From the IMG/VR virus record IMGVR_UViG_3300027734_000034: a stretch of 64,000 nt of DNA, one strand, 5' to 3'. The translations under genes were made by a program, and so were the position numbers. The notes beneath the pieces are model-generated. The model was not told the DNA's origin and ran no database searches. It was given only the letters and a program-made list of their open reading frames with translations. The DNA is from a virus (taxonomy: Duplodnaviria; Heunggongvirae; Uroviricota; Caudoviricetes). Below are positions 23,972 through 52,790 of this stretch, in pieces (the stretch's first letter is position 1; every line of letters starts with the position of its first letter).

Positions 23972-23972
23972 G

Positions 23973-24542: not shown

Positions 24543-24551
24543 TTAATCTAA

Positions 24552-25133: not shown

Positions 25134-25153
25134 TTGATATTATATTAATAATG

Positions 25154-29643: not shown

Positions 29644-29699
29644 ATATTCTTATTTGTTATTGATATTTATACAGTATAAATACGCTGGGAACAATACTT

Positions 29700-31859: not shown

Positions 31860-31862
31860 AAT

Positions 31863-37628: not shown

Positions 37629-37633
37629 GCTAT

Positions 37634-39567: not shown

Positions 39568-39569
39568 GA

Positions 39570-40655: not shown

Positions 40656-41347
40656 TATTTTATGCCGATACGCATATATCGTGTGTACTTATCAAGCGCC
40701 AATTCACCTTCATATAGCATAGTAGACATTGGAGATTGTATTCTAAATTCTTCTAAGCTATTAGAACAATTTATATGATCTTCAATCTCAACGTAGTTAT
40801 TGGTTTGAAGTATAACTATCTTATTATTAGGTATGTTATTGTACCAAACATCAAAATTATGTATATGTTCACAGCTAGTATTGATGATGGTGTTTGCAGA
40901 ATCAGTTAATTCTAATTTACTTCTATCATATCTATGAGTTTCATATTTAAAATTTTCATAAATTAGATTATGTATATCTACTGTAGCTGCTTTAAATTGC
41001 CAATTATTTTTTACTTTTTCTCTGTTTATAGTTTCTGCTACTCGTTCACACAACGGATCAATGTCAAAGCTACGAATTTTATCTATTATGCAACTACTCT
41101 CAAATAACATTGGTGCTAATGTAGCATACCAACCAGCACATAAAAATATGATACCTAAATCTAAGTTTAATTTTTCTAATTCAGATACTAACCATCGTTT
41201 ACTTTTTAGTTGTCCCCAGCTTAACGCATCAGACAAGTCAGCACCCTCATTATCAACTGCATTGCATAATTGACTAAACAATTTGTTTTGAGTTAAAACA
41301 AACATTCTTCCAAACGTATCTTTATCATCTGTCCAATTAATTGTCAT
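40655..41347 (-). CDS. Class I SAM-dependent methyltransferase-like protein
   Basis: GQLKSKRWL, CAGWY, SFDID, INTSCEH. Confidence 0.65.
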   Translation of the reverse strand: MTINWTDDKDTFGRMFVLTQNKLFSQLCNAVDNEGADLSDALSWGQLKSKRWLVSELEKLNLDLGIIFLCAGWYATLAPMLFESSCIIDKIRSFDIDPLCERVAETINREKVKNNWQFKAATVDIHNLIYENFKYETHRYDRSKLELTDSANTIINTSCEHIHNFDVWYNNIPNNKIVILQTNNYVEIEDHINCSNSLEEFRIQSPMSTMLYEGELALDKYTRYMRIGIK

Positions 41348-42923
41348 CAAATTTCTCCTTTAACCAATCAAAGTTATTAATCTTTGATAGTGCTAGTAAA
41401 TGGCCTTTATTTAATGTTCCGTATGATCTGCCTTGAATTGCACCAGCAATCGCATATTTACCATATGGTCTATCAGCACCCACTGTACACCATGTTTCCA
41501 ATCTATTAAATGTTTCCTCATCGTTCTGTCTGTCAATGACTTTACTTGCTAGTTTGCAACATTCTCTAAATGCACTACGCCAAGCACTAAATGCGTCAGT
41601 ATTGAAATTTGTTATGTTGCTAACTTCAAATACGGGCTTGTACTTAGTGCTGATACTGGTGGTCATGTCAGGCTTACTCAAGTCCATGTTGATTGTTAAC
41701 TCTCTAGGGAATAACTTGATGCCACCAAATCCATACTCTAAGTCATTGACTGGATTCTTACTGCGCCAAACATAAACCCAGTCCATCTTGTCTGGATGAA
41801 CGATATAGTCAAAATTAAAATTCTTGTTTATTACGGCATCACCATCTACTATCCAAACCATCTTAGTGTTGGCTAACTTAGCAGCAGTAATATGTGCATT
41901 ATGTATACCTTTAACACCGTCAACTCTTTTTGCTCTTGGGAATCTACGCTTAAGATTAGTCCAATTCTCCTCAGCATTAGGTTCATTGTATGTTACCATA
42001 ATAATATCATATTCATACTCATTAATAGTATCAACTGAGTGTATCGTTTTGGGTTGTCTATCGGGGTTGAATTCTAAAGTTTTAATGAATTTGCTTTGTT
42101 CACTAGTAAATGGTTCACATATTGGGATAATGCTACCTAAAGTTTTGCATTCGTTTACTGCATCTAACACTGACATTTTTTCTACCGTAGATTTATACAA
42201 ATCATTTAAATAATCAAAATCTCTTACTTGAGTAAAATCCCAATTTGTATATTGTGTTTTATAACATCCTTGTCTAGCACCTAATATAGCCCATATGCCA
42301 TTATTAACCTCTATTCCAGTAGTCATCCAAATTTTTAGTCTATTTAAATTACCTATGTTTAAGTCTGCTAATTCATCGACTTTAATTCCGTTATGCAAGC
42401 ACATCTTTACCCCTTCACGGAATCCAGCACGCCATGCTTGCAACTGGCTAGTATTATTGTGTATTATAGAATATGACTTATCTATTGCCATATAATTTAA
42501 TGCCCAACAAAAATCTACTTGAGTCATGGGATCATTTAGATCCGCTGCCTCATGTGTTTTCATATCAAGCATTGCTTGTACAGGCCAACATTTGATTCCC
42601 CCGTTGCCGTACAATAAACCGTTGATGATATTCTTACTGGGCCAACTAAAGACTGTTTTACTGTCATCGATTGAATCATCTAACACTAGTGTCTGATGTA
42701 GATATTTGTGGTCAATAACCGCATCGCCGTCAATGACTGATACTCGTGGGGTAGTTGCTAATTTTGCAACCGCTTTGTGTGCAGCGTCACTACCTTTAAC
42801 TCCATGAACCCTTTTGGCATAAGGAATTTTTGTTAACAAATCTTCCCAATTTGCTTGTGCATTTGGCTCATCATAGCTAAGATAGACAACATCGTATTCG
42901 TAGATTTTAAATTCTTTACTCAT
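41337..42923 (-). CDS. Tandem two-domain glycosyltransferase (GT-A-like)
   Basis: Duplicated YD....YxEPNA..RV.GVKG..AH..DGDA (DxD)..YG.GGIK..AWR..FRE. Confidence 0.7.
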   Translation of the reverse strand: MSKEFKIYEYDVVYLSYDEPNAQANWEDLLTKIPYAKRVHGVKGSDAAHKAVAKLATTPRVSVIDGDAVIDHKYLHQTLVLDDSIDDSKTVFSWPSKNIINGLLYGNGGIKCWPVQAMLDMKTHEAADLNDPMTQVDFCWALNYMAIDKSYSIIHNNTSQLQAWRAGFREGVKMCLHNGIKVDELADLNIGNLNRLKIWMTTGIEVNNGIWAILGARQGCYKTQYTNWDFTQVRDFDYLNDLYKSTVEKMSVLDAVNECKTLGSIIPICEPFTSEQSKFIKTLEFNPDRQPKTIHSVDTINEYEYDIIMVTYNEPNAEENWTNLKRRFPRAKRVDGVKGIHNAHITAAKLANTKMVWIVDGDAVINKNFNFDYIVHPDKMDWVYVWRSKNPVNDLEYGFGGIKLFPRELTINMDLSKPDMTTSISTKYKPVFEVSNITNFNTDAFSAWRSAFRECCKLASKVIDRQNDEETFNRLETWCTVGADRPYGKYAIAGAIQGRSYGTLNKGHLLALSKINNFDWLKEKFDDN

Positions 42924-42982
42924 ACGAATATTTAATATAAATAAAGGATGATGCGTAATTTGTGTTTTGGGTAAATTGAAGG

Positions 42983-43011
42983 TTGACTTCTATTCAGAAC
43001 TACTATATAAT
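42983..43011 (+). promoter_or_regulatory. sigma70-type promoter for the leader/tRNA region
   Basis: TTGACT-17 bp-TATAAT. Confidence 0.8.
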
Positions 43012-43064
43012 ACACACATAAACGCAAAAAACACTATGTAATTTGCAGTTATTTTTAACCAGGA

Positions 43065-43071
43065 CTAAATA
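43065..43071 (+). promoter_or_regulatory. T4-like late promoter motif (A/C)TAAATA (representative copy)
   Basis: Same motif shortly upstream of genes at ~5587, 8794, 17982, 18822, 21627, 29675, 46399, 49276, 51503 and 56737; T4 late consensus is TATAAATA. Confidence 0.6.
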
Positions 43072-43078
43072 GAATACT

Positions 43079-43213
43079 ATGATGAATAAAACTTGTTACA
43101 TGCCGAAACATACGGGGCTATGGTCTATAGAGACCTTAGCGGCCTTTGCGGTATCATATCCTACAAGTATTCGCGGGAATGATAACCAAAGAGGAGCCCG
43201 GGGAGAGGAATAA
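43079..43213 (+). CDS. Putative attenuator leader peptide, 44 aa, containing all 20 amino acids
   Basis: MMNKTCYMPKHTGLWSIETLAAFAVSYPTSIRGNDNQRGARGEE*; lies between promoter and terminator. Confidence 0.6.
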   Translation: MMNKTCYMPKHTGLWSIETLAAFAVSYPTSIRGNDNQRGARGEE

Positions 43214-43240
43214 CTAGTTACATCATAACAAAATTTATTC

Positions 43241-43275
43241 AACCCCTGGGAAACTAAAAAGTCTCAGGGGTTTTT
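43241..43275 (+). terminator. Intrinsic terminator with a competing antiterminator
   Basis: AACCCCTGGGA/TCTCAGGGGTT stem + T-run; 5' arm can instead pair with 43197-43213. Confidence 0.8.
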
Positions 43276-43300
43276 CGTTGTATAAAAACAACAAACAGAG

Positions 43301-43329
43301 TTTACAGTAAATGGATACTCTGATATACT
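43301..43329 (+). promoter_or_regulatory. sigma70-type promoter
   Basis: TTTACA-17 bp-TATACT, preceded by GTTGT-N6-ACAAC palindrome at 43277-43292. Confidence 0.6.
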
Positions 43330-43345
43330 AAGGGTTAATTAAGAA

Positions 43346-43475
43346 GCAACTACAAAGTTGCGTAGTGGAGAGTTAGATAGTGTGTATAGGTAACGAGGAC
43401 CTAGTCTGCACTTAAAACATGGACGAACGGGCGGCCTAGAGGATGAAGTCTCTTTTGTGAGATGAAAAATTCTAG
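43346..43475 (+). ncRNA. Uncharacterised structured RNA at the head of the tRNA array
   Basis: Stems GCAACT/AGTTGC, AGTGTG/TGCACT, TAGGT/ACCTA, CTAGA/TCTAG, GTCTC/GAGAT; no credible ORF. Confidence 0.4.
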
Positions 43476-43477
43476 CG

Positions 43478-43550
43478 TATTGAAACATATTAAAACACGC
43501 CCCTAGTAGCAGTAGCGAATCAAGGGTGTAATGTTGAGTGTGTTTCAATA
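43478..43550 (+). ncRNA. Long-stem element, family B copy 1
   Basis: TATTGAAACATAT...GTGTGTTTCAATA. Confidence 0.5.
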
Positions 43551-43583
43551 CACACATTCGCAAGAGTGTGTTAACAAACATGT

Positions 43584-43659
43584 TGGGGTGTCGCCTAGTG
43601 GCCTAAGGCAACGGTCTTTGAAATCGTCATCATGGGTTCGAATCCCATCTCCCCTGCCA
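43584..43659 (+). tRNA. tRNA-Gln(TTG)
   Basis: Cloverleaf, loop CTTTGAA, TTCGAAT, CCA. Confidence 0.9.
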
Positions 43660-43666
43660 AATTTAT

Positions 43667-43745
43667 TCCGTAGAATCCGAGCATGGTGCACGGACTTGAC
43701 TGTTAATCAATGACTAGCTGGGATCATTACCCAGATACGGAGCCA
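43667..43745 (+). tRNA. tRNA-Asn(GTT), atypical T-loop ATCATTA
   Basis: Cloverleaf, loop CTGTTAA, CCA. Confidence 0.8.
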
Positions 43746-43751
43746 ATTTTA

Positions 43752-43825
43752 GCCCTTTTCGTATAACGGTATTACGCCTGTTTTGTAATCAGGATACGGC
43801 AGTTCAATTCTGTCATGGGGCACCA
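43752..43825 (+). tRNA. tRNA-Thr(TGT)
   Basis: Loop TTTGTAA, TTCAATT, CCA. Confidence 0.85.
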
Positions 43826-43830
43826 GTTTT

Positions 43831-43891
43831 AGGATAGCAACAGCAAATCAAAAAAACTTTCAACGTTTATGAAAAAAAATGCTATCCTGTT
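43831..43891 (+). ncRNA. Y-RNA-like module, family A copy 1
   Basis: AGGATAGCAA-CAGCAA...TGCTATCCTGTT; internal TTTCA-ACGTTTA-TGAAA hairpin. Confidence 0.65.
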
Positions 43892-43898
43892 TTATTAT

Positions 43899-43972
43899 GC
43901 GTGGTTAGTTTAACGGAAAAATCAGTGGTTGCCAACTACTAGTCAAGGGTTCGACTCCCTTACCCCGCACCA
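43899..43972 (+). tRNA. tRNA-Gly(GCC)
   Basis: Loop TTGCCAA, TTCGACT, CCA. Confidence 0.85.
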
Positions 43973-43979
43973 ATTTTAT

Positions 43980-44054
43980 GCCTGGTTAGTTCAGCGGAAG
44001 AACGTCTGCCCGATTAGCGGAATGTCGTAGGTTCGACTCCTACACTAGGTACCA
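43980..44054 (+). tRNA. tRNA-Ile(GAT) with atypical loop CCGATTA (C33, U37)
   Basis: Cloverleaf, TCTGC/GCGGA stem, CCA. Confidence 0.75.
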
Positions 44055-44059
44055 GTTTA

Positions 44060-44173
44060 AGGATAGGTTCAGCAAATAATTTAACTACTACTCTGTAAAA
44101 GTAAAGGAACGGTTCGACTCCGTAGCCGCAAGGTTTGGTGTAACGGTAGCACTATGTTAAAAACTATCCTGTT
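44060..44173 (+). ncRNA. Y-RNA-like module, family A copy 2, with circularly permuted tRNA-like domain (YrlA-like)
   Basis: AGGATAGGTT-CAGCAA...AACTATCCTGTT enclosing TACT-CTGTAAA-AGTA, ACGG-TTCGACT-CCGT, AGCC-GCAA-GGTT, GTGT-AACGGTA-GCAC. Confidence 0.7.
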
Positions 44174-44180
44174 ATTTTAT

Positions 44181-44255
44181 ATTCCGTGAGGCAGCTGGCG
44201 TGGCCGATAGTCCTTCAAACTATTGAGATGGGATCAAAACCCATACGGAATACCA
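44181..44255 (+). tRNA. tRNA-Glu(TTC), atypical (C33, T-loop ATCAAAA)
   Basis: ATAGT-CCTTCAA-ACTAT, ATTCCGT/ACGGAAT, CCA. Confidence 0.7.
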
Positions 44256-44261
44256 ATCAAT

Positions 44262-44338
44262 GCGACCGTAACTCAGCTGGATAGAGTACTAGGCTACGAA
44301 CTTAGGAGTCGGGAGTTCGAATCTCTCCGGTCGCACCA
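44262..44338 (+). tRNA. tRNA-Arg(ACG)
   Basis: Loop CTACGAA, TTCGAAT, CCA. Confidence 0.92.
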
Positions 44339-44342
44339 ATTT

Positions 44343-44416
44343 GCTCTTTTAGTATAAAGGTATTATAATACATTGGTAATGTATAGACGCTGGATCGTTA
44401 CCAGCAAGGAGCACCA
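44343..44416 (+). tRNA. tRNA-Thr(GGT), atypical T-loop ATCGTTA
   Basis: ATACA-TTGGTAA-TGTAT, CCA. Confidence 0.8.
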
Positions 44417-44510
44417 TATAAGAACACACTGCTTGCCTGACTGCAAAAGTCGTGGTAAACTACAAGAGAAAGGGGTTCAAATCCCCGGGACTGGTAGTGT
44501 GTTTCTATAT
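44417..44510 (+). ncRNA. Long-stem element, family B copy 2, with T-arm-like cargo
   Basis: (CCA)TATAAGAACACACT...AGTGTGTTTCTATAT(GG); internal GGGG-TTCAAAT-CCCC. Confidence 0.55.
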
Positions 44511-44586
44511 GGTAATATAGCATAGTGGCTAATGCAACTGCTTCATACGCAGTCTATCGTTGGTTCGAGTCCAACTATTACCACCA
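44511..44586 (+). tRNA. tRNA-Met/Ile2(CAT)
   Basis: ACTGC-TTCATAC-GCAGT, CCA. Confidence 0.85.
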
Positions 44587-44595
44587 AACAATTTT

Positions 44596-44671
44596 GCCTC
44601 TATAACTCAGTTGGTAGAGTATCGTGTTGATAACGCGGAAGTCCTTGGTTCAAGTCCAAGTGGAGGCACCA
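44596..44671 (+). tRNA. tRNA-Ile(GAT)
   Basis: Loop TTGATAA, TTCAAGT, CCA. Confidence 0.9.
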
Positions 44672-44677
44672 AAATTT

Positions 44678-44751
44678 GGGCTGCTAGTATAATGGGATTA
44701 CACTGGCCTTGCAAGTCAGTTATTGGGGTTCGATTCCCCAGCGGTCCACCA
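44678..44751 (+). tRNA. tRNA-Ala(TGC)
   Basis: Loop CTTGCAA, G3.U70, CCA. Confidence 0.9.
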
Positions 44752-44760
44752 AGTTTTTAT

Positions 44761-44869
44761 GGGTTGTCAAGGTTGGTCTCATGCACGGTGAATAGCCGTA
44801 GGAGCATTATCGAGTGTGCGCCACCGCACTCTTGGTCTGACAAGGGTTCAAGTCCCTTACAATCCACCA
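44761..44869 (+). ncRNA. tRNA-Ala/tmRNA-TLD-like RNA without canonical D or anticodon arms
   Basis: GGGTTGT/ACAATCC-A-CCA (G3.U70), GAC-AAGGG-TTCAAGT-CCCTT; ~75 nt non-tRNA interior. Confidence 0.6.
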
Positions 44870-44877
44870 AGTTTTAT

Positions 44878-44956
44878 CTGTGTGTGAGAAAGTCCGGTCT
44901 AATCTACTCGCCTTGGAAGTGAGAAATCGTAGGTTCAAATCCTACCGCACAGACCA
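44878..44956 (+). tRNA. tRNA-Pro(TGG), A37
   Basis: CTCGC-CTTGGAA-GTGAG, CCA. Confidence 0.85.
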
Positions 44957-44965
44957 ATTATTTAC

Positions 44966-45042
44966 GGTGACCATAGTGTAAAGGTTTAGCACCTCGCTCT
45001 GTGAAAGCGATAGAATGGGATCGTTCCCCATTGGTTACCCCA
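44966..45042 (+). tRNA. tRNA-His(GTG) with G-1, atypical T-loop ATCGTTC
   Basis: TCGCT-CTGTGAA-AGCGA, C73, CCA. Confidence 0.85.
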
Positions 45043-45047
45043 ATCAT

Positions 45048-45124
45048 GCCCTGGTAGCGCAATTGGTAGAGGCAATGGTCTAAGAAGCCATCAAGTGCGA
45101 GTTCGAATCTCGCCTAGGGCACCA
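45048..45124 (+). tRNA. tRNA-Leu(AAG), short variable loop
   Basis: ATGGT-CTAAGAA-GCCAT, TTCGAAT, CCA. Confidence 0.85.
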
Positions 45125-45135
45125 AACAAATTTAC

Positions 45136-45214
45136 GCCCCGCTGGACAAATCTGGCAAAGTCGCTTCTCTCAAAAGGAAGAGTTCTCTCGGTTCGACTCC
45201 GAGGCGGGGTACCA
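45136..45214 (+). tRNA. tRNA-Leu(CAA), short variable loop
   Basis: CTTCT-CTCAAAA-GGAAG, CCA. Confidence 0.85.
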
Positions 45215-45219
45215 ATTAT

Positions 45220-45311
45220 GGAGAGTAATGCAGGTGGGATGGTCCGCCGACGAGCCTTGAAAACTCGGTTCTCAGAAATGGGATGGGGTTCGACTCCTCT
45301 GCTCTCCGCCA
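45220..45311 (+). tRNA. tRNA-Ser(TGA), probable 8/4 fold
   Basis: GGAGAGTA/TGCTCTCC, GGGG-TTCGACT-CCTC, long variable arm, G73. Confidence 0.75.
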
Positions 45312-45316
45312 AATTT

Positions 45317-45462
45317 CAAGCTAGACGATAAGATCGAGTCCCAAATAATCTAGCACAGTCGGGGTTGGCTGTGTGACACCGCACACGATTATGAGGTAGT
45401 CTAAACTCTTTTATGCGAGACAAACTAGTGAGGCTGTGTAACGACAGATAGCTAGCTGCTTG
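45317..45462 (+). ncRNA. Uncharacterised structured RNA
   Basis: Terminal CAAGC/GCTTG, internal GCACAGTC/GGCTGTGT; directly after tRNA CCA. Confidence 0.35.
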
Positions 45463-45471
45463 AAAACTTAT

Positions 45472-46119
45472 TCATGGTTTACGAAACCACCAGAAGCATC
45501 CTTGTACAAATAGTTGTGCATTGTATGCTTTTGCTATGTTATCAACTAATTCAGGATTGACACCTGGAAGCCTTCTTCGTTTTTCTCTGATATCAGGTTG
45601 CTCAGAATCGTTTATCCATTCTTCAGATTTATAATCGTGGCCGCATACTATGCCACCACTGCGAACTTTTGTGCTCCAGTACATGGCATTATCTGCGCCA
45701 CAATCATCAAAGTATAAATCGCATTGAGTATTAGAAAATACATCAGTCATATTTTTGTTTTCATGTTGAAAATGAATACGGTGTAGGTCAATCTTATCTT
45801 TCATGTGTTTAGTATTATGCATGAACCAATCTTCAGTCGTTAATTCTTCTAGCGGGCGATCATGCCAGAATTCAGTAGAACCGTCTGGTAAAGTAGTATG
45901 TCCATCTGATATAAAATCTTCTAATACAATGAAGGTTGCATCGGATCTTATTTTATTCATTAGTACTATACTACCGCCGATGAAACTACCTAGTTCAATA
46001 ACTACCGGATTAGGCGGTAATGTAGTCACTAAAGCACTAAGAGATAATTGTTCATTTGCGCTCATAGCACAAAATGGTACATGTAAGTTATCCCATGTGG
46101 CATTTTTAATGTATATCAT
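45472..46119 (-). CDS. Class I SAM methyltransferase (Methyltransf_24-like), antisense within the tRNA array
   Basis: VIELGSFIGGS, YFDD, GGIVCGHDY; ATAAATA just upstream on minus strand. Confidence 0.75.
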   Translation of the reverse strand: MIYIKNATWDNLHVPFCAMSANEQLSLSALVTTLPPNPVVIELGSFIGGSIVLMNKIRSDATFIVLEDFISDGHTTLPDGSTEFWHDRPLEELTTEDWFMHNTKHMKDKIDLHRIHFQHENKNMTDVFSNTQCDLYFDDCGADNAMYWSTKVRSGGIVCGHDYKSEEWINDSEQPDIREKRRRLPGVNPELVDNIAKAYNAQLFVQGCFWWFRKP

Positions 46120-46162
46120 AAATTTATTTATCGTGCAGCTTTGGCTGTGTGAAAACCTATAA

Positions 46163-46239
46163 GCCATAGTAGCTCCAATCGGTAGAGCAGCGGACTGAAA
46201 ATTCGTGTGTTGCTGGTTCAAATCCAGCCTATGGCACCA
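46163..46239 (+). tRNA. tRNA-Phe(GAA)
   Basis: Loop CTGAAAA, CCA. Confidence 0.92.
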
Positions 46240-46246
46240 AGTATCT

Positions 46247-46321
46247 CTCGCTATAGTTCAACGGATAGAACGATTCTCTCCTAAAGAATAGATATAGGTT
46301 CAATTCCTATTGGTGAGACCA
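46247..46321 (+). tRNA. tRNA-Arg(CCT)
   Basis: ATTCT-CTCCTAA-AGAAT, CCA. Confidence 0.9.
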
Positions 46322-46429
46322 ACATATACATAGTTTATGCACAATAAGTATATAGTTACTGTGTAATAAGACAAAAGTATTGACTGGACCTAAACAGACT
46401 AAATATTAGTTTGTGAAAGGAACAAAAAT

Positions 46430-46669
46430 ATGGAAGCAATGAACAAAGGATTCGCCATCGCAGGCGGTTTTCTAAGTAGCGTTTTAGACTTAGGTGTAAA
46501 ACTTTTAGCGGTAGGTGTTATTCTACAAATCATCTTCGGAGCAGCAGTACCATTCATCGGATTGGATATTCTTGCTAACGTGATTAAATTCATCACAGCA
46601 CTTGGTAGCCAAGGCTTAGTTGGATTGGTTGCGATCGGAGTTTTAGGTTGGTCTTTCAACCGTAAGTAA
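46430..46669 (+). CDS. Small membrane protein
   Basis: Hydrophobic 79 aa, QIIFG..PF..GLVGLVA; RBS and downstream terminator. Confidence 0.65.
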   Translation: MEAMNKGFAIAGGFLSSVLDLGVKLLAVGVILQIIFGAAVPFIGLDILANVIKFITALGSQGLVGLVAIGVLGWSFNRK

Positions 46670-46694
46670 AACTACGATAACACACTCTCACAAG

Positions 46695-46714
46695 AACCCG
46701 CTAGTCGGGTTTTT
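46695..46714 (+). terminator. Intrinsic terminator
   Basis: AACCCG-CTAGT-CGGGTT-TTT. Confidence 0.7.
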
Positions 46715-46721
46715 GTTTGGC

Positions 46722-46750
46722 TTGACAATAATTCAGTTATGTGTTATAGT
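46722..46750 (+). promoter_or_regulatory. sigma70-type promoter
   Basis: TTGACA-17 bp-TATAGT. Confidence 0.7.
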
Positions 46751-46757
46751 TATGTAT

Positions 46758-46832
46758 GGGTCGTTAGTGCAATGGATAGCATACAAGTTTCCGATACTTG
46801 TGATGCAAGTTCGATTCTTGCACGACTTACCA
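46758..46832 (+). tRNA. tRNA-Arg(CCG)
   Basis: CAAGT-TTCCGAT-ACTTG, CCA. Confidence 0.85.
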
Positions 46833-46875
46833 AGAGTAAATAAGATTAGTGACAACAACAGAAAAGGAGTTTAGT

Positions 46876-47436
46876 ATGACTGTTCTAGCACTAGATATTT
46901 CAGGAGTTCCAAGACAATGGATCTCGCACGATGACGCGATCACATACCACGCAAAAGATGCGGTAGCATGGAGCATGGGTGAAGTTGTGGCTAAGTATCG
47001 TGGAGGTTTTCAAAACACCGGAGACCAAAGTTATATCGAAACTACCAGTATCATTGCTGTTAAAGGTCACGGATTCAACCCATACAAGCATGCCAATGTA
47101 GCATTGACTAACAGGACATTGTTTGGACGGGACCGACAGGTGTGTGCATACTGTGGTAAACATCACGGTAACTATCATCACTTAAGCAGGGACCATATTG
47201 TCCCTAAATTTTTAGGTGGTGAGAACACTTGGATGAATGTTGTTACTGCATGTAAAGAATGTAACAGTAAGAAAGGTCATAAGACATTGAAAGAAGCCCG
47301 CATGGAACTTCTGTATGCGCCTTATGTTCCTAATCATTACGAAAACATGATTTTACAACATCGTAACATCCTTGCTGACCAGATGGATTACTTGCTATCA
47401 GGTGTTCCAAAGCACAGTAGGATTCTACTAAACTAG
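46876..47436 (+). CDS. HNH endonuclease (McrA-like)
   Basis: RDRQVCAYCG..DHIVP..GG..WMNVVTACKECNSKKG; AAGGAG RBS. Confidence 0.9.
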   Translation: MTVLALDISGVPRQWISHDDAITYHAKDAVAWSMGEVVAKYRGGFQNTGDQSYIETTSIIAVKGHGFNPYKHANVALTNRTLFGRDRQVCAYCGKHHGNYHHLSRDHIVPKFLGGENTWMNVVTACKECNSKKGHKTLKEARMELLYAPYVPNHYENMILQHRNILADQMDYLLSGVPKHSRILLN

Positions 47437-47437
47437 G

Positions 47438-47466
47438 TTGACATAAAAATCAACCTAGTGTATAAT
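47438..47466 (+). promoter_or_regulatory. sigma70-type promoter overlapping an inverted repeat
   Basis: TTGACA-17-TATAAT; CTAGGTTGA/TCAACCTAG. Confidence 0.75.
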
Positions 47467-47513
47467 TCATCTAAATAAACATAGTAGTGAGTAACATCAC
47501 TACTATTAAAATT

Positions 47514-47588
47514 GCCCGATTGGCTCAGGGGTAGAGCAACCGCCTTGTAAGCGGTAGGTCGTCTGTTCGAATCAGACATTGGGCACCA
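47514..47588 (+). tRNA. tRNA-Thr(TGT)
   Basis: Loop CTTGTAA, CCA. Confidence 0.93.
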
Positions 47589-47596
47589 ATTTTTAT

Positions 47597-47672
47597 TCCC
47601 CAGTAGCACAGCGGTAGTTGCAGTTGACTGTTAATCAACGTGTCGGTGGTTCGATCCCATCCTGGGGAGCCA
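47597..47672 (+). tRNA. tRNA-Asn(GTT)
   Basis: Loop CTGTTAA, CCA. Confidence 0.93.
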
Positions 47673-47695
47673 AATATCTTTGTTAAGCATTCTGC

Positions 47696-47724
47696 TTGAC
47701 AATAAATCAATTATCCTCTATAAT
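47696..47724 (+). promoter_or_regulatory. sigma70-type promoter
   Basis: TTGACA-17-TATAAT. Confidence 0.8.
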
Positions 47725-47745
47725 AGAGACTACTTAGAATTTAAT

Positions 47746-47820
47746 CTGGCGTTAGTTCAACGGATAGAACAGTAGCCTTCTAAGCTATAGATAGAGGTTC
47801 GATTCCTCTACGCCGGACCA
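47746..47820 (+). tRNA. tRNA-Arg(TCT)
   Basis: Loop CTTCTAA, CCA. Confidence 0.92.
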
Positions 47821-47855
47821 AATGATATAGTTGTAAAAATACAACAAGAAAGTAT

Positions 47856-48032
47856 TTGACAATAAATGGATGTGGTGTTATACTACATGCATAAGTTGAA
47901 AATCTGTTTAAAACACAGTATGACGTAGGTTGATGCTACCGTAAGGTAGACTGATACAGAGTAAAAGGCTAGTGGAAATCATACATTAAACTAGCTAAAC
48001 AGGTTGACAATAAATGGTGCTTATGATATAAT
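47856..48032 (+). promoter_or_regulatory. Tandem sigma70 promoters (47856-47884 and 48004-48032)
   Basis: TTGACA-ATAAATGG..-TATACT and TTGACA-ATAAATGG..-TATAAT, both with 17-bp spacers. Confidence 0.8.
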
Positions 48033-48136
48033 CATAGTATGAGTTGAGAAATCAACAGGTTGTTTCAAAAAGCGAGACACGCTAGCGATAGCAAAAAGTC
48101 AAGCAGGAAACATTAAATGAGCAGGTCTCAGCCAAA

Positions 48137-48148
48137 TGTTCTTTAAAA
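48137..48148 (+). promoter_or_regulatory. boxA-like antitermination signal, with upstream GNRA hairpin at 48042-48055
   Basis: TGTTCTTTAAAA versus rrn boxA TGCTCTTTAACA; GTTGA-GAAA-TCAAC. Confidence 0.6.
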
Positions 48149-48184
48149 TTTTATTTTCGTATAGACCCTGTTTAAGTTACAGGG

Positions 48185-48270
48185 ATCTATATGTAAACAT
48201 GCTTCAGCGGGATAGACCGTGATGGATAGTTCTGTTTCGTACAGTATCCGAAGTGTGTTTTCATATAGAT
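48185..48270 (+). ncRNA. Long-stem element, family B copy 3
   Basis: ATCTATATGTAAACATGCTTC...GAAGTGTGTTTTCATATAGAT. Confidence 0.5.
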
Positions 48271-48274
48271 ATTT

Positions 48275-48350
48275 GCTCAGTTCGTCTAGAGGCCTAGGAC
48301 AACGCCCTTTCACGGCGTGAACAGGGATTCGAATTCCCTACTGAGTACCA
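48275..48350 (+). tRNA. tRNA-Glu(TTC)
   Basis: Loop CTTTCAC, CCA. Confidence 0.92.
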
Positions 48351-48355
48351 AGTTC

Positions 48356-48439
48356 GGAGACATGGCAGAGTGGTTGATTGCAACAGACTGTAAATCTGTC
48401 CTTAATTGCGCGGTGGTTCGAATCCATCTGTCTCCACCA
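48356..48439 (+). tRNA. tRNA-Tyr(GTA)
   Basis: Loop CTGTAAA, variable arm, CCA. Confidence 0.92.
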
Positions 48440-48446
48440 TATAATT

Positions 48447-48524
48447 GCTTCGTTAGCATAGCTGGCCTAATGCGCTACCCTGTCACGGTAGAGATCAGGG
48501 GTTCAAATCCCCTACGAGGCGCCA
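48447..48524 (+). tRNA. tRNA-Asp(GTC)
   Basis: Loop CTGTCAC, G73, CCA. Confidence 0.92.
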
Positions 48525-48531
48525 AATTTTT

Positions 48532-48602
48532 GCGCTGGATTGACATTGCGAGTTGGATTTGAAGCCAAACGCAGACAGGTTTGATTCCTGTCAGGTGCAC
48601 CA
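48532..48602 (+). pseudogene. Degenerate tRNA-like sequence (no D arm, irregular anticodon arm)
   Basis: GACAGG-TTTGATT-CCTGTC, GCGC/GTGC-A-CCA. Confidence 0.5.
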
Positions 48603-48605
48603 AGT

Positions 48606-48784
48606 TTTGTAAGTGTAGATGTTGAGAAAGCATGGTGTCGAAAGCCATGTGAGAGAATGGTACGAGTCCAACAAAATTGCAACGCTCAAGTATCAACTAT
48701 TACTACGTACCTCTATCCTGTCGGCCGCTTTAAAGAAAATACAGGTAGAATGGTAGCAATGAGTGAGGTGCTACTACTTACAAA
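48606..48784 (+). ncRNA. Uncharacterised structured RNA
   Basis: Terminal TTTGTAAGT/ACTTACAAA; CATGGT-GTCGAAA-GCCATG; T-loop-like TGG-TACGAGT-CCA. Confidence 0.45.
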
Positions 48785-48792
48785 TTAATCAT

Positions 48793-48866
48793 GCGGGGTT
48801 CGTAAAATGGCATTACCTTAGCCTTCCAAGCTAAAGTCAGGAGTTCGATTCTCCTACCCCGCTCCA
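48793..48866 (+). tRNA. tRNA-Gly(TCC)
   Basis: Loop CTTCCAA, U73, CCA. Confidence 0.92.
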
Positions 48867-48872
48867 TAATGT

Positions 48873-48901
48873 TTGACATATATCTATCAATGATATATAA
48901 T
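48873..48901 (+). promoter_or_regulatory. sigma70-type promoter
   Basis: TTGACA-17-TATAAT. Confidence 0.75.
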
Positions 48902-48914
48902 AGTGAAATGAAAT

Positions 48915-48999
48915 GCGACTGTGATGAAATAGGTAGACATAGTAGACTTAAAATCTACCGCCGAAAGGTGTACCGGTTCGATTCCGGTCAGTCGTACCA
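48915..48999 (+). tRNA. tRNA-Leu(TAA)
   Basis: Loop CTTAAAA, variable arm GCC-GAAA-GGT, CCA. Confidence 0.93.
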
Positions 49000-49157
49000 T
49001 AATATAGTGTATTCTTGTCAAAATGTTATAGGGATATAGCCTACCCTATATATAAAAGAAAGTGCTGCATATATAGATTACTTTGAATAATCTATGAACG
49101 AGGATGCACCACAAGGTACGGTGTTATGACATACACTGGGAGTATACTATATTATGG
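48997..49157 (+). ncRNA. Uncharacterised RNA closed by a ~20-bp stem
   Basis: CCATAATATAGTGTATTCTT/GGGAGTATACTATATTATGG; internal TATAGGG/CCCTATA, ATAGATTA/TAATCTAT. Confidence 0.45.
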
Positions 49158-49162
49158 TAATT

Positions 49163-49239
49163 GCCTTCATAGCACAATTGGTTAGTGCAAACGACTCATA
49201 ATCGTTAGGTTACTGGTTCGAGTCCAGTTGAAGGCACCA
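49163..49239 (+). tRNA. tRNA(CAT), Ile2-like
   Basis: AACGA-CTCATAA-TCGTT; resembles ileX-type body. Confidence 0.88.
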
Positions 49240-49300
49240 GATATTACGGAGAGTGACAGTTTATGCAACTGTAGCATAAATACATTCATAGGAGATTGAC

Positions 49301-49744
49301 ATGAATGTAAATGAAAAAGGTACTGTAGGTCTGATTGAGGTTATCAGAGACCTAACAAAAAAAGGATATGAGTGTTTTACCCCAATTCACGACTATAGCA
49401 AAGTAGATTTGATTGCGATGGCTAATTCTTGGGAAACATTTAAGATTCAAGTAAAGTATCGGACTACTTTTAGGAATAGAATAGAAGTAGGTTTTAACTC
49501 AGTAGTCAATGGGAAAAAAGTCCCGATGGATTTGACTGCAATTGACGGGTGGGCAATTTATTGTCCCGAGTTAGATAAAGTCGTTTATGTTCACAAGAGT
49601 GAAGTAAACATAGAATTAGGTGGCTTTAGTTTTAGATTAGAGCCGGGAAAAAACACATTCAATACTAGCGACGGTAAGACTAGATTGAAATTGTTTGATG
49701 AATACGGAGATGTGGCCGAGTGGTCTAAGGCAGCAGGTTGCTAA
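49301..49744 (+). CDS. Free-standing PD-(D/E)XK homing endonuclease (PDDEXK_5/I-Ssp6803I-like)
   Basis: KGTVG..GYECFTP..DLI..KIQVK; 3' end overlaps tRNA-Ser. Confidence 0.8.
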   Translation: MNVNEKGTVGLIEVIRDLTKKGYECFTPIHDYSKVDLIAMANSWETFKIQVKYRTTFRNRIEVGFNSVVNGKKVPMDLTAIDGWAIYCPELDKVVYVHKSEVNIELGGFSFRLEPGKNTFNTSDGKTRLKLFDEYGDVAEWSKAAGC

Positions 49745-49797
49745 CCTGTCGTGTCAAGTAATTGGCACCGTGAGTTCAAATCTCACCGTCTCCGCCA
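49706..49797 (+). tRNA. tRNA-Ser(GCT)
   Basis: Loop TTGCTAA, long variable arm, G73, CCA. Confidence 0.92.
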
Positions 49798-49819
49798 AAG
49801 ATTTTTAACAAGGAAAAAT

Positions 49820-49981
49820 ATGAAACCAAACAAGACTTTTAAAATGAGTAAGTCATTCAAACGATTGACTAGGACACTACCATTCAATACTGGTGATCAA
49901 CGACATGCATTCAAGCGAATGATGATTGATGCTCAATTGATGGGTGGAGTACGCCCGGCTAGAGAAAAGTCAGAGAAATAA
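49820..49981 (+). CDS. Small basic hypothetical protein
   Basis: MKPNKTFKMSK..FKRMMIDAQL; AAGGA RBS. Confidence 0.6.
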   Translation: MKPNKTFKMSKSFKRLTRTLPFNTGDQRHAFKRMMIDAQLMGGVRPAREKSEK

Positions 49982-49984
49982 TAT

Positions 49985-50062
49985 GTAGGGATGGCGGAGC
50001 GGCCCAACGCAACTGTCTGCAAAACAGTAACACCGCGAGTTCAAATCTCGCTCCCTACTCCA
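49985..50062 (+). tRNA. tRNA-Cys(GCA)
   Basis: ACTGT-CTGCAAA-ACAGT, U73, CCA. Confidence 0.9.
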
Positions 50063-50070
50063 AGTAAAGG

Positions 50071-50099
50071 TTGACAACAAACCTAAATTGTTGTATAAT
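50071..50099 (+). promoter_or_regulatory. sigma70-type promoter
   Basis: TTGACA-17-TATAAT. Confidence 0.8.
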
Positions 50100-50126
50100 A
50101 AATTTTTTAACGAAAGAGGTAATGAC

Positions 50127-50190
50127 ATGAAACGTTCAATGAAACGATAGTGTCATTCTTAAACCCCATGTATTGGTTTAGGGATGGCAC
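50127..50190 (+). promoter_or_regulatory. Micro-ORF MKRSMKR* plus 16-bp hairpin ahead of two tRNA-Lys
   Basis: GAGGT SD 6 nt before ATG; GTGTCATTCTTAAACC/GGTTTAGGGATGGCAC. Confidence 0.45.
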
Positions 50191-50217
50191 ATTAAAGACA
50201 AATTTAATACTGCTTGT

Positions 50218-50292
50218 CCCTTCAAGATGTTACGGTAGCATAGCGGACTCTTAATCCGACAAGACTCAGTTCAATTCTGAGTGGAGGGACCA
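50218..50292 (+). tRNA. tRNA-Lys(CTT)
   Basis: Loop CTCTTAA, CCA. Confidence 0.85.
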
Positions 50293-50298
50293 ATATAT

Positions 50299-50374
50299 GG
50301 GGTTATGGTGAAACGGTTATCACAGCAGACTTTTAATCTGCCAGTTCCGAGTTCGAATCTCGGTGGCCCTACCA
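50299..50374 (+). tRNA. tRNA-Lys(TTT)
   Basis: Loop CTTTTAA, CCA. Confidence 0.92.
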
Positions 50375-50487
50375 TATAAGAACACATTCAACGGCAAACA
50401 GGATACCTGGCAACTGGACGCAGGGGCTATCCCAAAGATGTAGGGCACTACCACCGTAAAGTCAGGAAATGAGTGTGTTCCTATATG
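50373..50487 (+). ncRNA. Long-stem element, family B copy 4
   Basis: CATATAAGAACACATTCA...TGAGTGTGTTCCTATATG; internal GGATA/TATCC, GTAG/CTAC. Confidence 0.55.
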
Positions 50488-50507
50488 ATGACTAAATAAA
50501 GAATAAT

Positions 50508-50597
50508 GGAAGATTGGTCGAGTGGTTTATGGCTCTAGTCTTGAAAACTAGCGAATCTTAAAAGGTTCCGTGAGTTCGAATCTCACATCTTCCTCCA
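50508..50597 (+). tRNA. tRNA-Ser(TGA)
   Basis: CTAGT-CTTGAAA-ACTAG, variable arm, CCA. Confidence 0.92.
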
Positions 50598-50602
50598 AGT
50601 TA

Positions 50603-50666
50603 AGGATCGGTTCAGCAAATTTTATACATTTGACTTTTAATCAAAACCGTAAAAAACGATCCTGTT
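50603..50666 (+). ncRNA. Y-RNA-like module, family A copy 3, with Lys(UUU) anticodon stem-loop
   Basis: AGGATCGGTT-CAGCAA...AACGATCCTGTT; TTTGA-CTTTTAA-TCAAA. Confidence 0.7.
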
Positions 50667-50668
50667 AT

Positions 50669-50743
50669 ATCTCCCTGGTGTTAGCGGCAGCACATCGGTC
50701 TCCAAAACCGCAAGGCAAGGTTCAAATCCTTGGGGGGATGCCA
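50669..50743 (+). tRNA. tRNA-Trp(CCA)
   Basis: Loop CTCCAAA, G73, CCA. Confidence 0.9.
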
Positions 50744-50753
50744 AAGAATAAAT

Positions 50754-50838
50754 GCCCTGGTGGCGAAATTGGTAGACGCACCAGATTTAGGTTCTGACGC
50801 CGAAAGGCGTGTCGGTTCGAGTCCGACCTAGGGCACCA
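50754..50838 (+). tRNA. tRNA-Leu(TAG)
   Basis: Loop TTTAGGT, variable arm, CCA. Confidence 0.92.
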
Positions 50839-50894
50839 CAAAAACTCGCCTTGACTGATGGCGTATAATGAGATAAGTAATCAGTCACGAATTC

Positions 50895-50968
50895 GGGGGA
50901 TTAGTATAATGGGATTACGGCAGCTTTGCAAGCTGTTTATGAGAGTTCGATTCTCTCATCCTCCACCA
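50895..50968 (+). tRNA. tRNA-Ala(TGC)
   Basis: Loop TTTGCAA, G3.U70, CCA. Confidence 0.92.
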
Positions 50969-50973
50969 AGTTA

Positions 50974-51034
50974 AGGATGCTTCCAGCAAATAAAACAAAC
51001 TTTTATTATCAAAAAAGCAAAACAGCATCCTGTT
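50974..51034 (+). ncRNA. Y-RNA-like module, family A copy 4
   Basis: AGGATGCTTC-CAGCAA...AGCATCCTGTT. Confidence 0.65.
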
Positions 51035-51038
51035 AAAT

Positions 51039-51115
51039 GCGTGATTAGTTCAGCATGGAAGAACGCTACCCCGACACGGTAGAGGTCAAAAGTTCGAATC
51101 TTTTATCACGCACCA
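51039..51115 (+). tRNA. tRNA-Val(GAC), C33
   Basis: CTACC-CCGACAC-GGTAG, CCA. Confidence 0.85.
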
Positions 51116-51133
51116 AGAACAACATAAATATAT

Positions 51134-51212
51134 AGCGGAGTGGGGGAGTATGGTCGTCCCCGCTAGTCTCATAAGCTAGAGAACGGTGGTTCAAATCCAT
51201 CCTCCGCATCCA
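51134..51212 (+). tRNA. tRNA-Met(CAT), initiator-like (1:72 mismatch) but lacking the three G-C pairs
   Basis: AGCGGAG/CTCCGCA, CTAGT-CTCATAA-GCTAG, TTCAAAT. Confidence 0.8.
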
Positions 51213-51217
51213 ATACT

Positions 51218-51454
51218 ATGACAGATTACGTATTAGCTTTTTTAGCAATGTTCCTTACTGATGTTTTTTACACGTACTACCTAAAGGCAGTGCAAGATGA
51301 ACAAGCATTAAGAGCAAGTAGCTGGGCAACAATCATATATATTGTTGCAGCCTTTGCAATCATAGAGTATAATACTAATCATCTGTTATTGATTCCAGCA
51401 GCACTTGGTGCGTTTTGCGGCACGTTTGTTGGAATGAAGTTGAGAAAGAAATAA
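51218..51454 (+). CDS. Small membrane protein
   Basis: Three hydrophobic segments; LGAFCGTFVG. Confidence 0.65.
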   Translation: MTDYVLAFLAMFLTDVFYTYYLKAVQDEQALRASSWATIIYIVAAFAIIEYNTNHLLLIPAALGAFCGTFVGMKLRKK

Positions 51455-51514
51455 TTCGGAGTGTGGTCGGAGACTAAAAATCTCAATAATTGTCCTCCGA
51501 GCATAAATAGATGT

Positions 51515-52096
51515 ATGGAACTCATACAATATCAAAATAATGACGGGACTTTTACTAGTCCCAAAAACGGAAAAATATATAAATCATTGAAGGCTTTTAG
51601 AGCGCATTGGTTTAACAATCCGGCTGGAGCAGGTTTTAAAGGATTAAATCTTATAAAAAAAGATTGTCAATATTGCTCAAGCAAATATGGATTGTCTAAT
51701 TTAAAAAGACATGAAGAAAAATGTTATTTGAATCCTAAAAATATAAGAGAATGCTTACATTGTAGTAAACCTATTAAGGATTATGTAGGTTCAAAGGGCA
51801 CATGTAGTAGAAGTTGTGCTAACAGCTTTTTTAAAGTAGGTGAGAATAATGGAAATTTCAAAGGTGATTCATATCAATTTCTTTGTTTTTCTAATCATAA
51901 AAAAGAATGTATAGTGTGTGGAGAAAATAAAATTGTTGCGGTTCATCATTACAACGAAAACCACGAGGACAATAGAATTGAAAATTTAGTTCCCTTGTGC
52001 CCCACACATCATCAATATATGCATAGTAGATATGCAGAAGAAATTAGACACATAGTTGATAACTATGTAAATACATTTATACTCCGGTTCGCCTAA
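51515..52096 (+). CDS. Zn-finger HNH homing endonuclease
   Basis: CQYC, CLHC, CSRSC, CIVCG..VHH..N..NLVPLCPTHH; overlaps tRNA-Pro. Confidence 0.85.
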   Translation: MELIQYQNNDGTFTSPKNGKIYKSLKAFRAHWFNNPAGAGFKGLNLIKKDCQYCSSKYGLSNLKRHEEKCYLNPKNIRECLHCSKPIKDYVGSKGTCSRSCANSFFKVGENNGNFKGDSYQFLCFSNHKKECIVCGENKIVAVHHYNENHEDNRIENLVPLCPTHHQYMHSRYAEEIRHIVDNYVNTFILRFA

Positions 52097-52160
52097 TCTG
52101 GTTATGGCACTTGCTTTGGGAGCAAGAATAATGTGAGTTCAAATCCCACACTGGAGACCA
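52082..52160 (+). tRNA. tRNA-Pro(TGG)
   Basis: CTTGC-TTTGGGA-GCAAG, CCA. Confidence 0.9.
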
Positions 52161-52176
52161 AGTAAAGGAATATGTT

Positions 52177-52365
52177 ATGAGTAAAGGTAGTAGACCAAGA
52201 CCATATAGTGTTAGTCAAAAAGAATATCTAGATAAGTTTGATGCAATCTTTCGCAAGCCCTCACCTAGAGAGATTGAGGATGCCCAAATAGAGCAAGAAG
52301 CATTTGACAAGATAGAAGAAAAGATGTATACTGCAAAGATAGAAGGAGATAAACAATGCAAGTAA
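52177..52365 (+). CDS. Small hypothetical protein
   Basis: MSKGSRPRP..FDAIF; AAGGA RBS. Confidence 0.6.
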   Translation: MSKGSRPRPYSVSQKEYLDKFDAIFRKPSPREIEDAQIEQEAFDKIEEKMYTAKIEGDKQCK

Positions 52366-52625
52366 GAGCAAAACATATTTTAGTAGAATCATTGAACACC
52401 GCAGTAACTTTAAAAGAAAAGATTGCGATGGGAGAAGATTTTGGTGCATTAGCAAAACTTCATAGCAAGTGTCCGAGTGGACAGAATGGTGGAGATTTGG
52501 GAATGTTTAGTCGTGGACAGATGGTAAAGCCGTTTGAAGATGTTGCGTTTGGTAGTGATGTTGGCCAAGTAAGTGGCCCAGTACAAACACAATTCGGTTA
52601 TCATTTGATTCAACGAACAGGATAA
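52356..52625 (+). CDS. ppiC: Parvulin-type peptidyl-prolyl isomerase
   Basis: AKHILV, S.CPS..GGDLG.F.RGQMV..FE, TQFGYHLI. Confidence 0.93.
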   Translation: MQVRAKHILVESLNTAVTLKEKIAMGEDFGALAKLHSKCPSGQNGGDLGMFSRGQMVKPFEDVAFGSDVGQVSGPVQTQFGYHLIQRTG

Positions 52626-52632
52626 AAATTTT

Positions 52633-52707
52633 GCCTCGTTAACTCAGCGGTAGAGTAGCGCCTTTACACGGCGAATGTCGGCGGTTCAATCCCGTCACGA
52701 GGTACCA
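52633..52707 (+). tRNA. tRNA-Val(TAC)
   Basis: Loop TTTACAC, CCA. Confidence 0.92.
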
Positions 52708-52716
52708 GGTTAGTAA

Positions 52717-52790
52717 GCGGGTATGATGTAATGGTAGCTTGTGACCTTGCCAAGGTTAGCGTGAGAGTTCGATTCTCTCTACCCGCTCCA
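52717..52790 (+). tRNA. tRNA-Gly(GCC)
   Basis: Loop TTGCCAA, U73, CCA. Confidence 0.9.

Follow-up and report, generated by a model that had tools for sequence, protein, structure and literature searches.

The purpose of large phage tRNA sets is an old open question, framed in the available text of PMC10264068 as codon compensation versus replacement of depleted or cleaved host tRNAs. The stretch of DNA analyzed here, 64,000 nucleotides in length and hereafter called the window, is phage DNA in which tail-fibre, ribonucleotide-reductase and endolysin families are present. Its tRNA array is preceded by a short open reading frame (ORF) that contains all 20 amino acids and is followed by a predicted terminator. 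We asked what such a leader could do for the tRNA genes. Our answer is that it is probably a ribosome-coupled transcription attenuator, which would report a shortage of any aminoacyl-tRNA ahead of the phage tRNA genes. This reading is built on the layout of the leader, its conservation, selection on its composition and the complementarity of its end to the terminator, all of which were read from the sequences.

The first-pass annotation had placed a promoter, the leader ORF and an intrinsic terminator in this order. Every one of these coordinates holds (Table 1), and the leader content was confirmed as 44 codons with every amino acid and 35 distinct codons. All four Thr codons occur in the ORF, and no codon is used more than three times. 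The last amino acid needed for the full set is Gln at codon 37 (43187-43189). A hairpin inside the ORF (approximately 43150-43187) is a candidate RNA polymerase pause site. The terminator was missed by a simple terminator scan because its loop is longer than 8 nt.

Table 1 Features of the leader locus and tRNA array in the window.
Feature	Position	Strand	Remarks
P1, sigma-70-type promoter match TTGACT-17-TATAAT	42983..43011	+	11/12; predicted start at about 43018
Weak SD-like AGGA, 14 nt from ATG	within 43061..43071	+	sequence match
CTAAATA, 7 nt before leader ATG	within 43061..43071	+	sequence match; function putative
Leader ORF, 44 sense codons, 20/20 amino acids	43079..43213	+	set complete at codon 37
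Antiterminator 5' core	43197..43203	+	pairs with terminator 5' arm 43244-43250
Inner antiterminator helix and enclosed spacer	43208..43240	+	43208-43213 pairs with 43235-43240
Predicted intrinsic terminator	43241..43275	+	stem 43243-43270, 5-T tail, -17.1 kcal/mol
Palindrome GTTGT-N6-ACAAC	43277..43292		precedes P2; possible operator
P2, sigma-70-type promoter TTTACA-17-TATACT with TG	43301..43329	+	10/12; downstream of terminator
Structured RNA motif before first tRNA	43379..43480	+	conserved; without Rfam match
First tRNA block	43584..46321	+	14 genes by default ARAGORN, 18 at relaxed threshold; 14 amino acids
Whole tRNA array	43584..52790	+	37 genes by default ARAGORN, all 20 amino acids, internal promoters

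We collected relatives of the leader by several routes. A peptide-alignment search gave 22 viral loci, 17 of them at 89-100% identity and five at 51-56%. Their leaders are 44-45 codons long and hold 20 amino acids (16/22) or 19 (6/22). A terminator follows in all, and tRNAs lie downstream in 19, the contigs of the other three ending early. The genes upstream of the leader and the tRNA order vary among relatives; therefore, the leader travels with the tRNA array. Among close variants of the window leader, 24/32 keep 20/20 amino acids and eight miss one. A profile search of 1.84 billion representatives yielded 27 matches. Three long repeat proteins were removed, and four of the remaining 24 short peptides were trimmed to the aligned Met; 19/24 contain 20 amino acids and 22/24 at least 19. 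The metagenome search added 53 further loci of the window leader's family. A neighbouring 528-aa gene was rejected as a guide to the locus, as tRNAs stood beside it in only 2/62 loci.

Two nucleotide patterns extended the collection. The terminator-only pattern matched at least 120 loci, 14 of which were linked to tRNAs or to the downstream RNA motif. Among the matches listed, 11 of these 14 have an ATG ORF of 33-48 codons holding 16-20 amino acids, compared with 15 short ORFs across 102 unlinked loci. The downstream RNA motif alone matched at least 119 loci, 80 with long flanks and 77 with at least 600 nt upstream. Among the matches listed, 72 of these 77 loci combine a terminator with an ATG ORF whose end lies 21-36 nt upstream of the stem, and the five loci without a leader are also without a tRNA. 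The 72 leaders hold 20 amino acids in 45 cases, 19 in 13 and 14-18 in 14, again among the matches listed. They comprise 62 distinct peptides with a median identity of 28% and lengths of 22-63 codons. As a control, the remaining ATG ORFs of 30-63 codons in these loci were scored, and only 17/530 are complete.

Clustering at 50% identity left 14/25 complete representatives against 0.98 expected, and clustering at 40% left 4/10 against 0.20. The clusters are not independent, because all merge at 35% identity, and by sequence they are probably one old family. The motif pattern was derived from loci found earlier and therefore represents this group of phages rather than phages in general. Five motif-bearing records are 330-365 kb in length and 93-100% complete. 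Two contigs from bacterial bins carry the same leader and are probably binned phage DNA. Several subfamilies (L245, L249, L260, L243 and L276) have leaders with only 14-17 amino acids; some of them have a tRNA upstream of the leader, which may then gate a sub-block.

No Pfam or PHROG match was obtained for the leader peptide. In Rfam searches of the window and 20 loci, the leader was unmatched, only tRNAs reached the gathering score, and nothing came near threshold in 42900-44300. Neither the window leader, as DNA or peptide, nor the leader of another family had a match in the cultured phage collection.

A promoter match of at least 10/12 lies within 170 nt of the upstream ORF in 49/62 distinct leaders. 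A good Shine-Dalgarno sequence is absent in the window leader and in 20 of the 25 cluster representatives. Their start regions show a T4-late-like motif in eight cases, a -10 box beside the ATG in ten and an SD-like sequence in five, and many leaders look leaderless in sequence. The CTAAATA of the window resembles the T4 late promoter consensus and would presumably yield a nearly leaderless mRNA.

We then evaluated the amino-acid content of the leader against chance. A single random ORF of 44 codons contains all 20 amino acids with a probability of approximately 1.8%. At least 35 distinct codons are expected in 1-9% of cases in random DNA, and both properties jointly in 0.1-0.5%. None of 14,034 windows of 44 codons from the window's own genes showed both. 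These single-ORF odds are suggestive, and conservation across relatives makes the case decisive.

Chimera nulls, made by two-parent joins or by column resampling with positions preserved, were used to test whether completeness survives. It was lost to a considerable degree in all three sets: 19/24 complete peptides in the profile-search set against null values of 0.49 (two-parent) and 0.22 (column), 18/19 against 0.72 and 0.28 in a second peptide set, and 14/25 against 0.27 and 0.06 among the cluster representatives. The binomial P against chimeras was 0.002-0.017, a statistic that ignores relatedness. Trp, Phe, Cys and Val shift position among leaders while the set stays complete. These comparisons of sequences indicate that amino-acid composition, rather than position, is under selection, which makes the leader an unusual case of selection on the amino-acid content of a peptide and not on its order.

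The place at which the set is completed was also examined. It is complete ahead of the antiterminator-start codon in 18/25 clusters against 8.4 by permutation, usually by 1-4 codons. A combined permutation test of where the last new amino acid first appears gave a borderline result (p = 0.051). Trp, Cys and His each occur approximately once per leader.

The first-pass annotation had called the leader "pan-codon". With the peptide held fixed, the 25 representatives together use 823 distinct codons, compared with 796-802 expected (p = 0.001-0.014), and 647 NNY/NNR classes, compared with 626-627 expected; the window leader covers 29/32 of these classes. Codon diversity across the representatives is therefore above expectation, but the effect is small. 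The window leader itself has only 35/61 codons, which is non-significant under uniform or base-composition models (p = 0.17-0.20). These tests ruled out the strict "pan-codon" reading. On the sequences compared, "all-amino-acid, leaning to isoacceptor coverage" fits the leader better.

The end of the ORF had been proposed to form an antiterminator that excludes the terminator. Both pairings listed in Table 1 are present in the local minimum-energy fold. Averaged over the 25 clusters, the cognate duplex of ORF end and terminator arm has an energy of -18.7 kcal/mol; duplexes with swapped partners average -12.6 and shuffled ones -9.5, and the 5' part of the ORF reaches only -5.3. The cognate duplex beats shuffles at p ≤ 0.05 in 22/25 clusters. 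The mutually exclusive antiterminator is thus supported. The cognate partner is the best of 25 in only eight clusters and among the top three in 17, because most stems share a CCC/GGG core. Across 36 sequences of the window's family, the 7-pair core helix is 100% paired, with six of seven pairs invariant and one G-U to A-U change. In the inner helix, 88% of cells are paired and one pair is broken in 15/36 sequences; the terminator stem is paired in 93% of cells. Clusters L237 and L272 have a different stem and a matching different antiterminator. No compensatory change occurs in the core helix among the 36 family sequences.

The switch was modelled on nascent window RNA with the ribosome represented as 28 blocked bases. 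The antiterminator probability was 0.94-1.0 at seven of nine tested A-site codons up to 36; inclusion of the 5' UTR lowered it at codons 14 and 26 (0.45-0.65). It fell to 0.03-0.52 at Gln37, the low value being that with the 5' UTR, and was 0 from codon 38, before the 3' arm emerges. The modelled switch therefore shuts when codon 37-38 of the 44 enters the A site, so that CGG and the other tail codons would be letters of RNA structure and not sensors. The proposal that stalling at any earlier codon allows read-through agrees with the model for most tested codons up to 36, but the last seven or so codons are not sensed. The antiterminator also forms without a ribosome in the model.

At equilibrium, the terminator wins in the full-length window leader at every ribosome position (P 0.99-1.0), and the local stretch alone favours the antiterminator (-21.2 vs -17.1). 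The switch in the window's family would therefore have to be kinetic. Over the 62 leaders, the mean equilibrium terminator probability was 0.52-0.55 for a ribosome at an early codon or no ribosome, and 0.94-1.00 when the ribosome occupied the last eight codons. At the stop codon, the mean was 0.84; in some long leaders, the model loses termination again at this point. Approximately half of the 62 leaders switch at equilibrium, and the other half, including the window leader, would need kinetics.

In a toy race with assumed rates, read-through stayed at or below 1.4% with all codons at normal speed and reached 11-35% once a single codon was slowed 7-15-fold. According to the accessible part of PMC1183508, attenuation theory predicts that a lone regulatory codon among many others confers little sensitivity unless its decoding becomes very slow. 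The toy-race rates and this theory would fit an alarm that responds to severe loss, for example in starvation or when tRNAs are destroyed. The use of about one codon per rare amino acid likewise points to an alarm for severe shortage and not to a fine dial.

The leader had been described as gating the tRNA array, with the caveat that a second promoter at 43301 could bypass the switch. This caveat holds for the window. The promoter match, P2, is present in 22/62 distinct leaders and in 10/11 members of the window's cluster, doubled in L213, and absent in 18/25 clusters (background, 14/200 bins). Leaders without P2 have the promoter ahead of the leader as their sole consensus promoter, or none was seen. 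At least six further promoters of 11-12/12 lie inside the tRNA array of the window, and a predicted terminator at 46691 ends the first tRNA block. The leader does precede the tRNA genes, but P2, the 46691 terminator and the internal promoters mean that read-through can at most add to the first block, which covers 14/20 amino acids. The palindrome before P2 recurs at 47830-47845, ahead of a promoter at 47856, and both copies are possible phage operators by sequence. The promoters at 43301 and 47856, and also that at 48004, share an AAATGG spacer stretch.

An ORF of at least 25 codons directly follows the terminator in 30/62 leaders and mostly encodes a protein of about 50 aa (e.g. L231:1554-1703, minus strand), a candidate effector of the switch. 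This protein had no Pfam match over cut-off (nine tested), none in PHROG (six tested), and none in Atlas or the cultured phage collection. This gene is absent from the window, where just a 6-codon frame within P2 remains. In one locus, the gene immediately after the leader terminator (L221:1151-1276) encodes the ribosome-rescue factor ArfA, with a Pfam score of 26.5 bits against a cut-off of 25.5. ArfA was not found in the five near-complete relatives examined and is therefore an occasional passenger. The downstream RNA motif of approximately 100 nt (43379-43480 in the window; also in L213-L331) is found in at least about 200 viral stretches, just before the first tRNA. RNAalifold on a plain MAFFT alignment returned one hairpin only, with compensatory changes, and further helices were seen by eye. 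The motif has no Rfam match; tRNA processing and processive antitermination are possible roles.

We infer from these results that the ORF is translated, that the ribosome sets the switch, that a shortage of any aminoacyl-tRNA triggers it and that tRNA output rises. The peptide would serve as a roll-call of charged tRNAs. RNA polymerase would transcribe the leader with the ribosome following behind. A ribosome past about codon 37 in time would cover the antiterminator strand (43197-43213), the terminator would fold, and transcription would end near 43275. When one aminoacyl-tRNA is short, the ribosome would linger at an earlier codon and the antiterminator would form first; starvation, tRNA loss or cleavage and a general translation block are possible causes. 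By holding the terminator 5' arm, the antiterminator would let polymerase continue through the RNA motif to the first tRNA block; many relatives would thereby also transcribe the ~50-aa gene, and one locus ArfA. In the window lineage, leader read-through would supplement, not replace, P2 transcription.

The weight of P2 bears on a reading that we consider improbable, in which the family has a genuine switch whose output in the window lineage is small: P2 with its palindrome would drive the first block, and the leader would be additive or fading. The spread of P2 through the window's cluster, its doubling in L213, the missing ~50-aa gene and the dominance of the terminator at equilibrium all fit such a loss. 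The leader, core antiterminator and terminator are nevertheless near-invariant despite changing upstream genes and tRNA order, and three-quarters of the close variants (24/32) retain the full amino-acid set. Lower still we place the view that the peptide itself has a function, as a small protein working for instance on the ribosome or in trans; the terminator would simply be that of its gene, and the broad composition and complementarity would be by-products. Nulls that keep the conserved positions lose completeness, the peptides have a median identity of only 28% and vary from 22 to 63 in length, the spacing to the terminator is fixed, the antiterminators are cognate, and Pfam and PHROG gave no match. 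It is in keeping with this view that the peptide is called as a gene in protein collections and that H, W and a PTSIRG-like stretch are conserved in family 1; PTSIRG was also the search seed, and its invariance was not counted as evidence for that reason.

Slightly less probable again is a generic sensor of ribosome speed or of transcription-translation coupling, responding to antibiotics or ribosome-inactivating defences, with single aminoacyl-tRNA shortage not being the selected signal. The modelled antiterminator that forms without a ribosome and ArfA as one output are compatible with it, as are bmrB and toiL, which respond to many antibiotics in the available portions of PMC4191407 and PMC12121999. 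It accounts neither for the retention of every amino acid nor for completion of the set shortly ahead of the switch. Generic ribosome-speed sensing would probably be a further input alongside the proposed signal and not a competing explanation. A chance ORF with chance complementarity beside an ordinary terminator has a negligible probability in our judgement: roughly 2% of random 44-codon frames do hold 20 amino acids, but the conservation, the cognate duplexes, the chimera nulls, the control ORFs and the permutation test refute it. The any-aminoacyl-tRNA attenuator thus remains our preferred reading.

In the trp, his, leu, thr and ilv attenuators, ribosome position selects the hairpin. The phage locus shows the general order of promoter, leader ORF and genes, a predicted intrinsic terminator and an exclusive antiterminator strand at the ORF end. 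It shares with those systems a leader ORF whose stop lies near a segment pairing with the terminator 5' arm, as given in the text available from PMC1183508. Their leaders use codons for one to three amino acids repeatedly, whereas the phage leader has approximately one codon per rare amino acid and no control-codon run of the trp/his class. It is followed by tRNA genes and not by biosynthetic or synthetase genes, and no T-box or other Rfam leader was matched. Unlike the super-attenuation of trp/his-type leaders, the untranslated phage leader favours read-through in the model.

By analogy, the closest known system is the mycobacterial whiB7 upstream ORF. In M. smegmatis, the whiB7 (wblC) ORF holds 19/20 amino acids and controls an intrinsic terminator/antiterminator, and the Trp response was lost after its only Trp codon was removed, according to the accessible part of PMC10274678. 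This is a precedent that a single codon suffices. Both systems have an ORF of diverse composition that controls, or in the phage would control, an intrinsic terminator, with broad translation-stress sensing described for whiB7. The whiB7 ORFs differ, as far as that text goes, in varying in the amino acids they miss, in being Ala-enriched and in having a transcription factor as output; the phage leader does not stand upstream of whiB7/wblC and has the tRNA array downstream instead. The phage design, likely also ribosome-coupled attenuation, differs in that completeness itself is selected, in a peptide of 33-60 codons, and in that the system is phage-borne and tRNAs would be its output.

The bmrB (Bacillus subtilis) and toiL (Escherichia coli) systems also use one upstream ORF for many translation stresses, without selection for a full amino-acid set reported in the available portions of PMC4191407 and PMC12121999. 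Their outputs, per the same portions, are an efflux pump and a toxin-antitoxin pair, respectively, and toiL acts through translation and Rho. The Anabaena trn L-array resembles the phage locus as a spare tRNA array induced by impaired translation, but it is bacterial and controlled at initiation by the DNA-binding repressor TrcR, whereas the phage would use a leader peptide and terminator (PMC8421152 and PMC10272220, in the parts accessible). Full-text searches of a collection with few subscription journals, judged from their listings, gave no description of a leader-peptide attenuator for phage tRNA genes.

Among cultured phages, Xanthomonas phage X1 (OQ427096.1) has an unannotated ORF of 39 codons with 19 amino acids (135559-135678 of the record), which ends 29 nt before a terminator and approximately 320 nt ahead of the first tRNA. 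Its modelled switch is the same as that of the window. BUDD, a relative of X1, has a leader with 18 amino acids. No such leader was found in the tRNA regions of Stenotrophomonas DLP6, Ralstonia RSP15 and Pseudomonas phiPsa374, so the leader is present in 2/5 cultured-phage tRNA regions examined, both from close kin; the stretch of Serratia BF examined contained no tRNAs.

If the attenuator reading is true, the phage tRNAs are a conditional rescue kit, withheld until the decoding of any amino acid falters, and the question of what tRNA sets are for becomes testable with a 300-nt reporter. The leader would also provide a universal sensor of translation health in ready-made form, and such a leader lies unannotated in the cultured phage X1. 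More tentatively, and with considerable doubt, one may picture phages that self-test their tRNA pool: the leader peptide would call every amino acid and most isoacceptor classes, and any depletion or cut by an anti-phage nuclease would turn on replacement tRNAs, together with ribosome-rescue genes, as a widespread inducible counter-defence of jumbo phages.

Several minor features of the array were recorded. Six copies of AGGAT..CAGCAA...ATCCTG occur in the window (43835, 44064, 50607, 50978, 53637 and 53822), between tRNAs and ahead of a DUF2828/DUF7788 RNA-binding gene (53903-55321), some with anticodon-like loops. As a guess, they are possibly Y-RNA-like partners; the Rfam model YrlA scored far below threshold for them. 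In a close relative (L071:4624-4715), ARAGORN reported a tRNA with a TTA (ochre) anticodon, and the same place in the window (44771-44869) holds an atypical tRNA-like stretch. A tRNA-Leu with an AAG anticodon, which is unusual for bacteria, is present at 45048-45124 and likewise in several relatives. A suspected UCA-anticodon tRNA at 44181 was rejected because the ARAGORN call there is a weak Glu(ttc). At the end of the array, an RNA polymerase omega-like protein (Pfam RNA_pol_Rpb6) and a parvulin-type PPIase are encoded (53352-53570 and 52356-52625). On the other side of the leader, a long block of minus-strand genes (23216-42923) includes several with CxxxCxxC radical-SAM-like motifs by eye and a weak glycosyltransferase-like gene.
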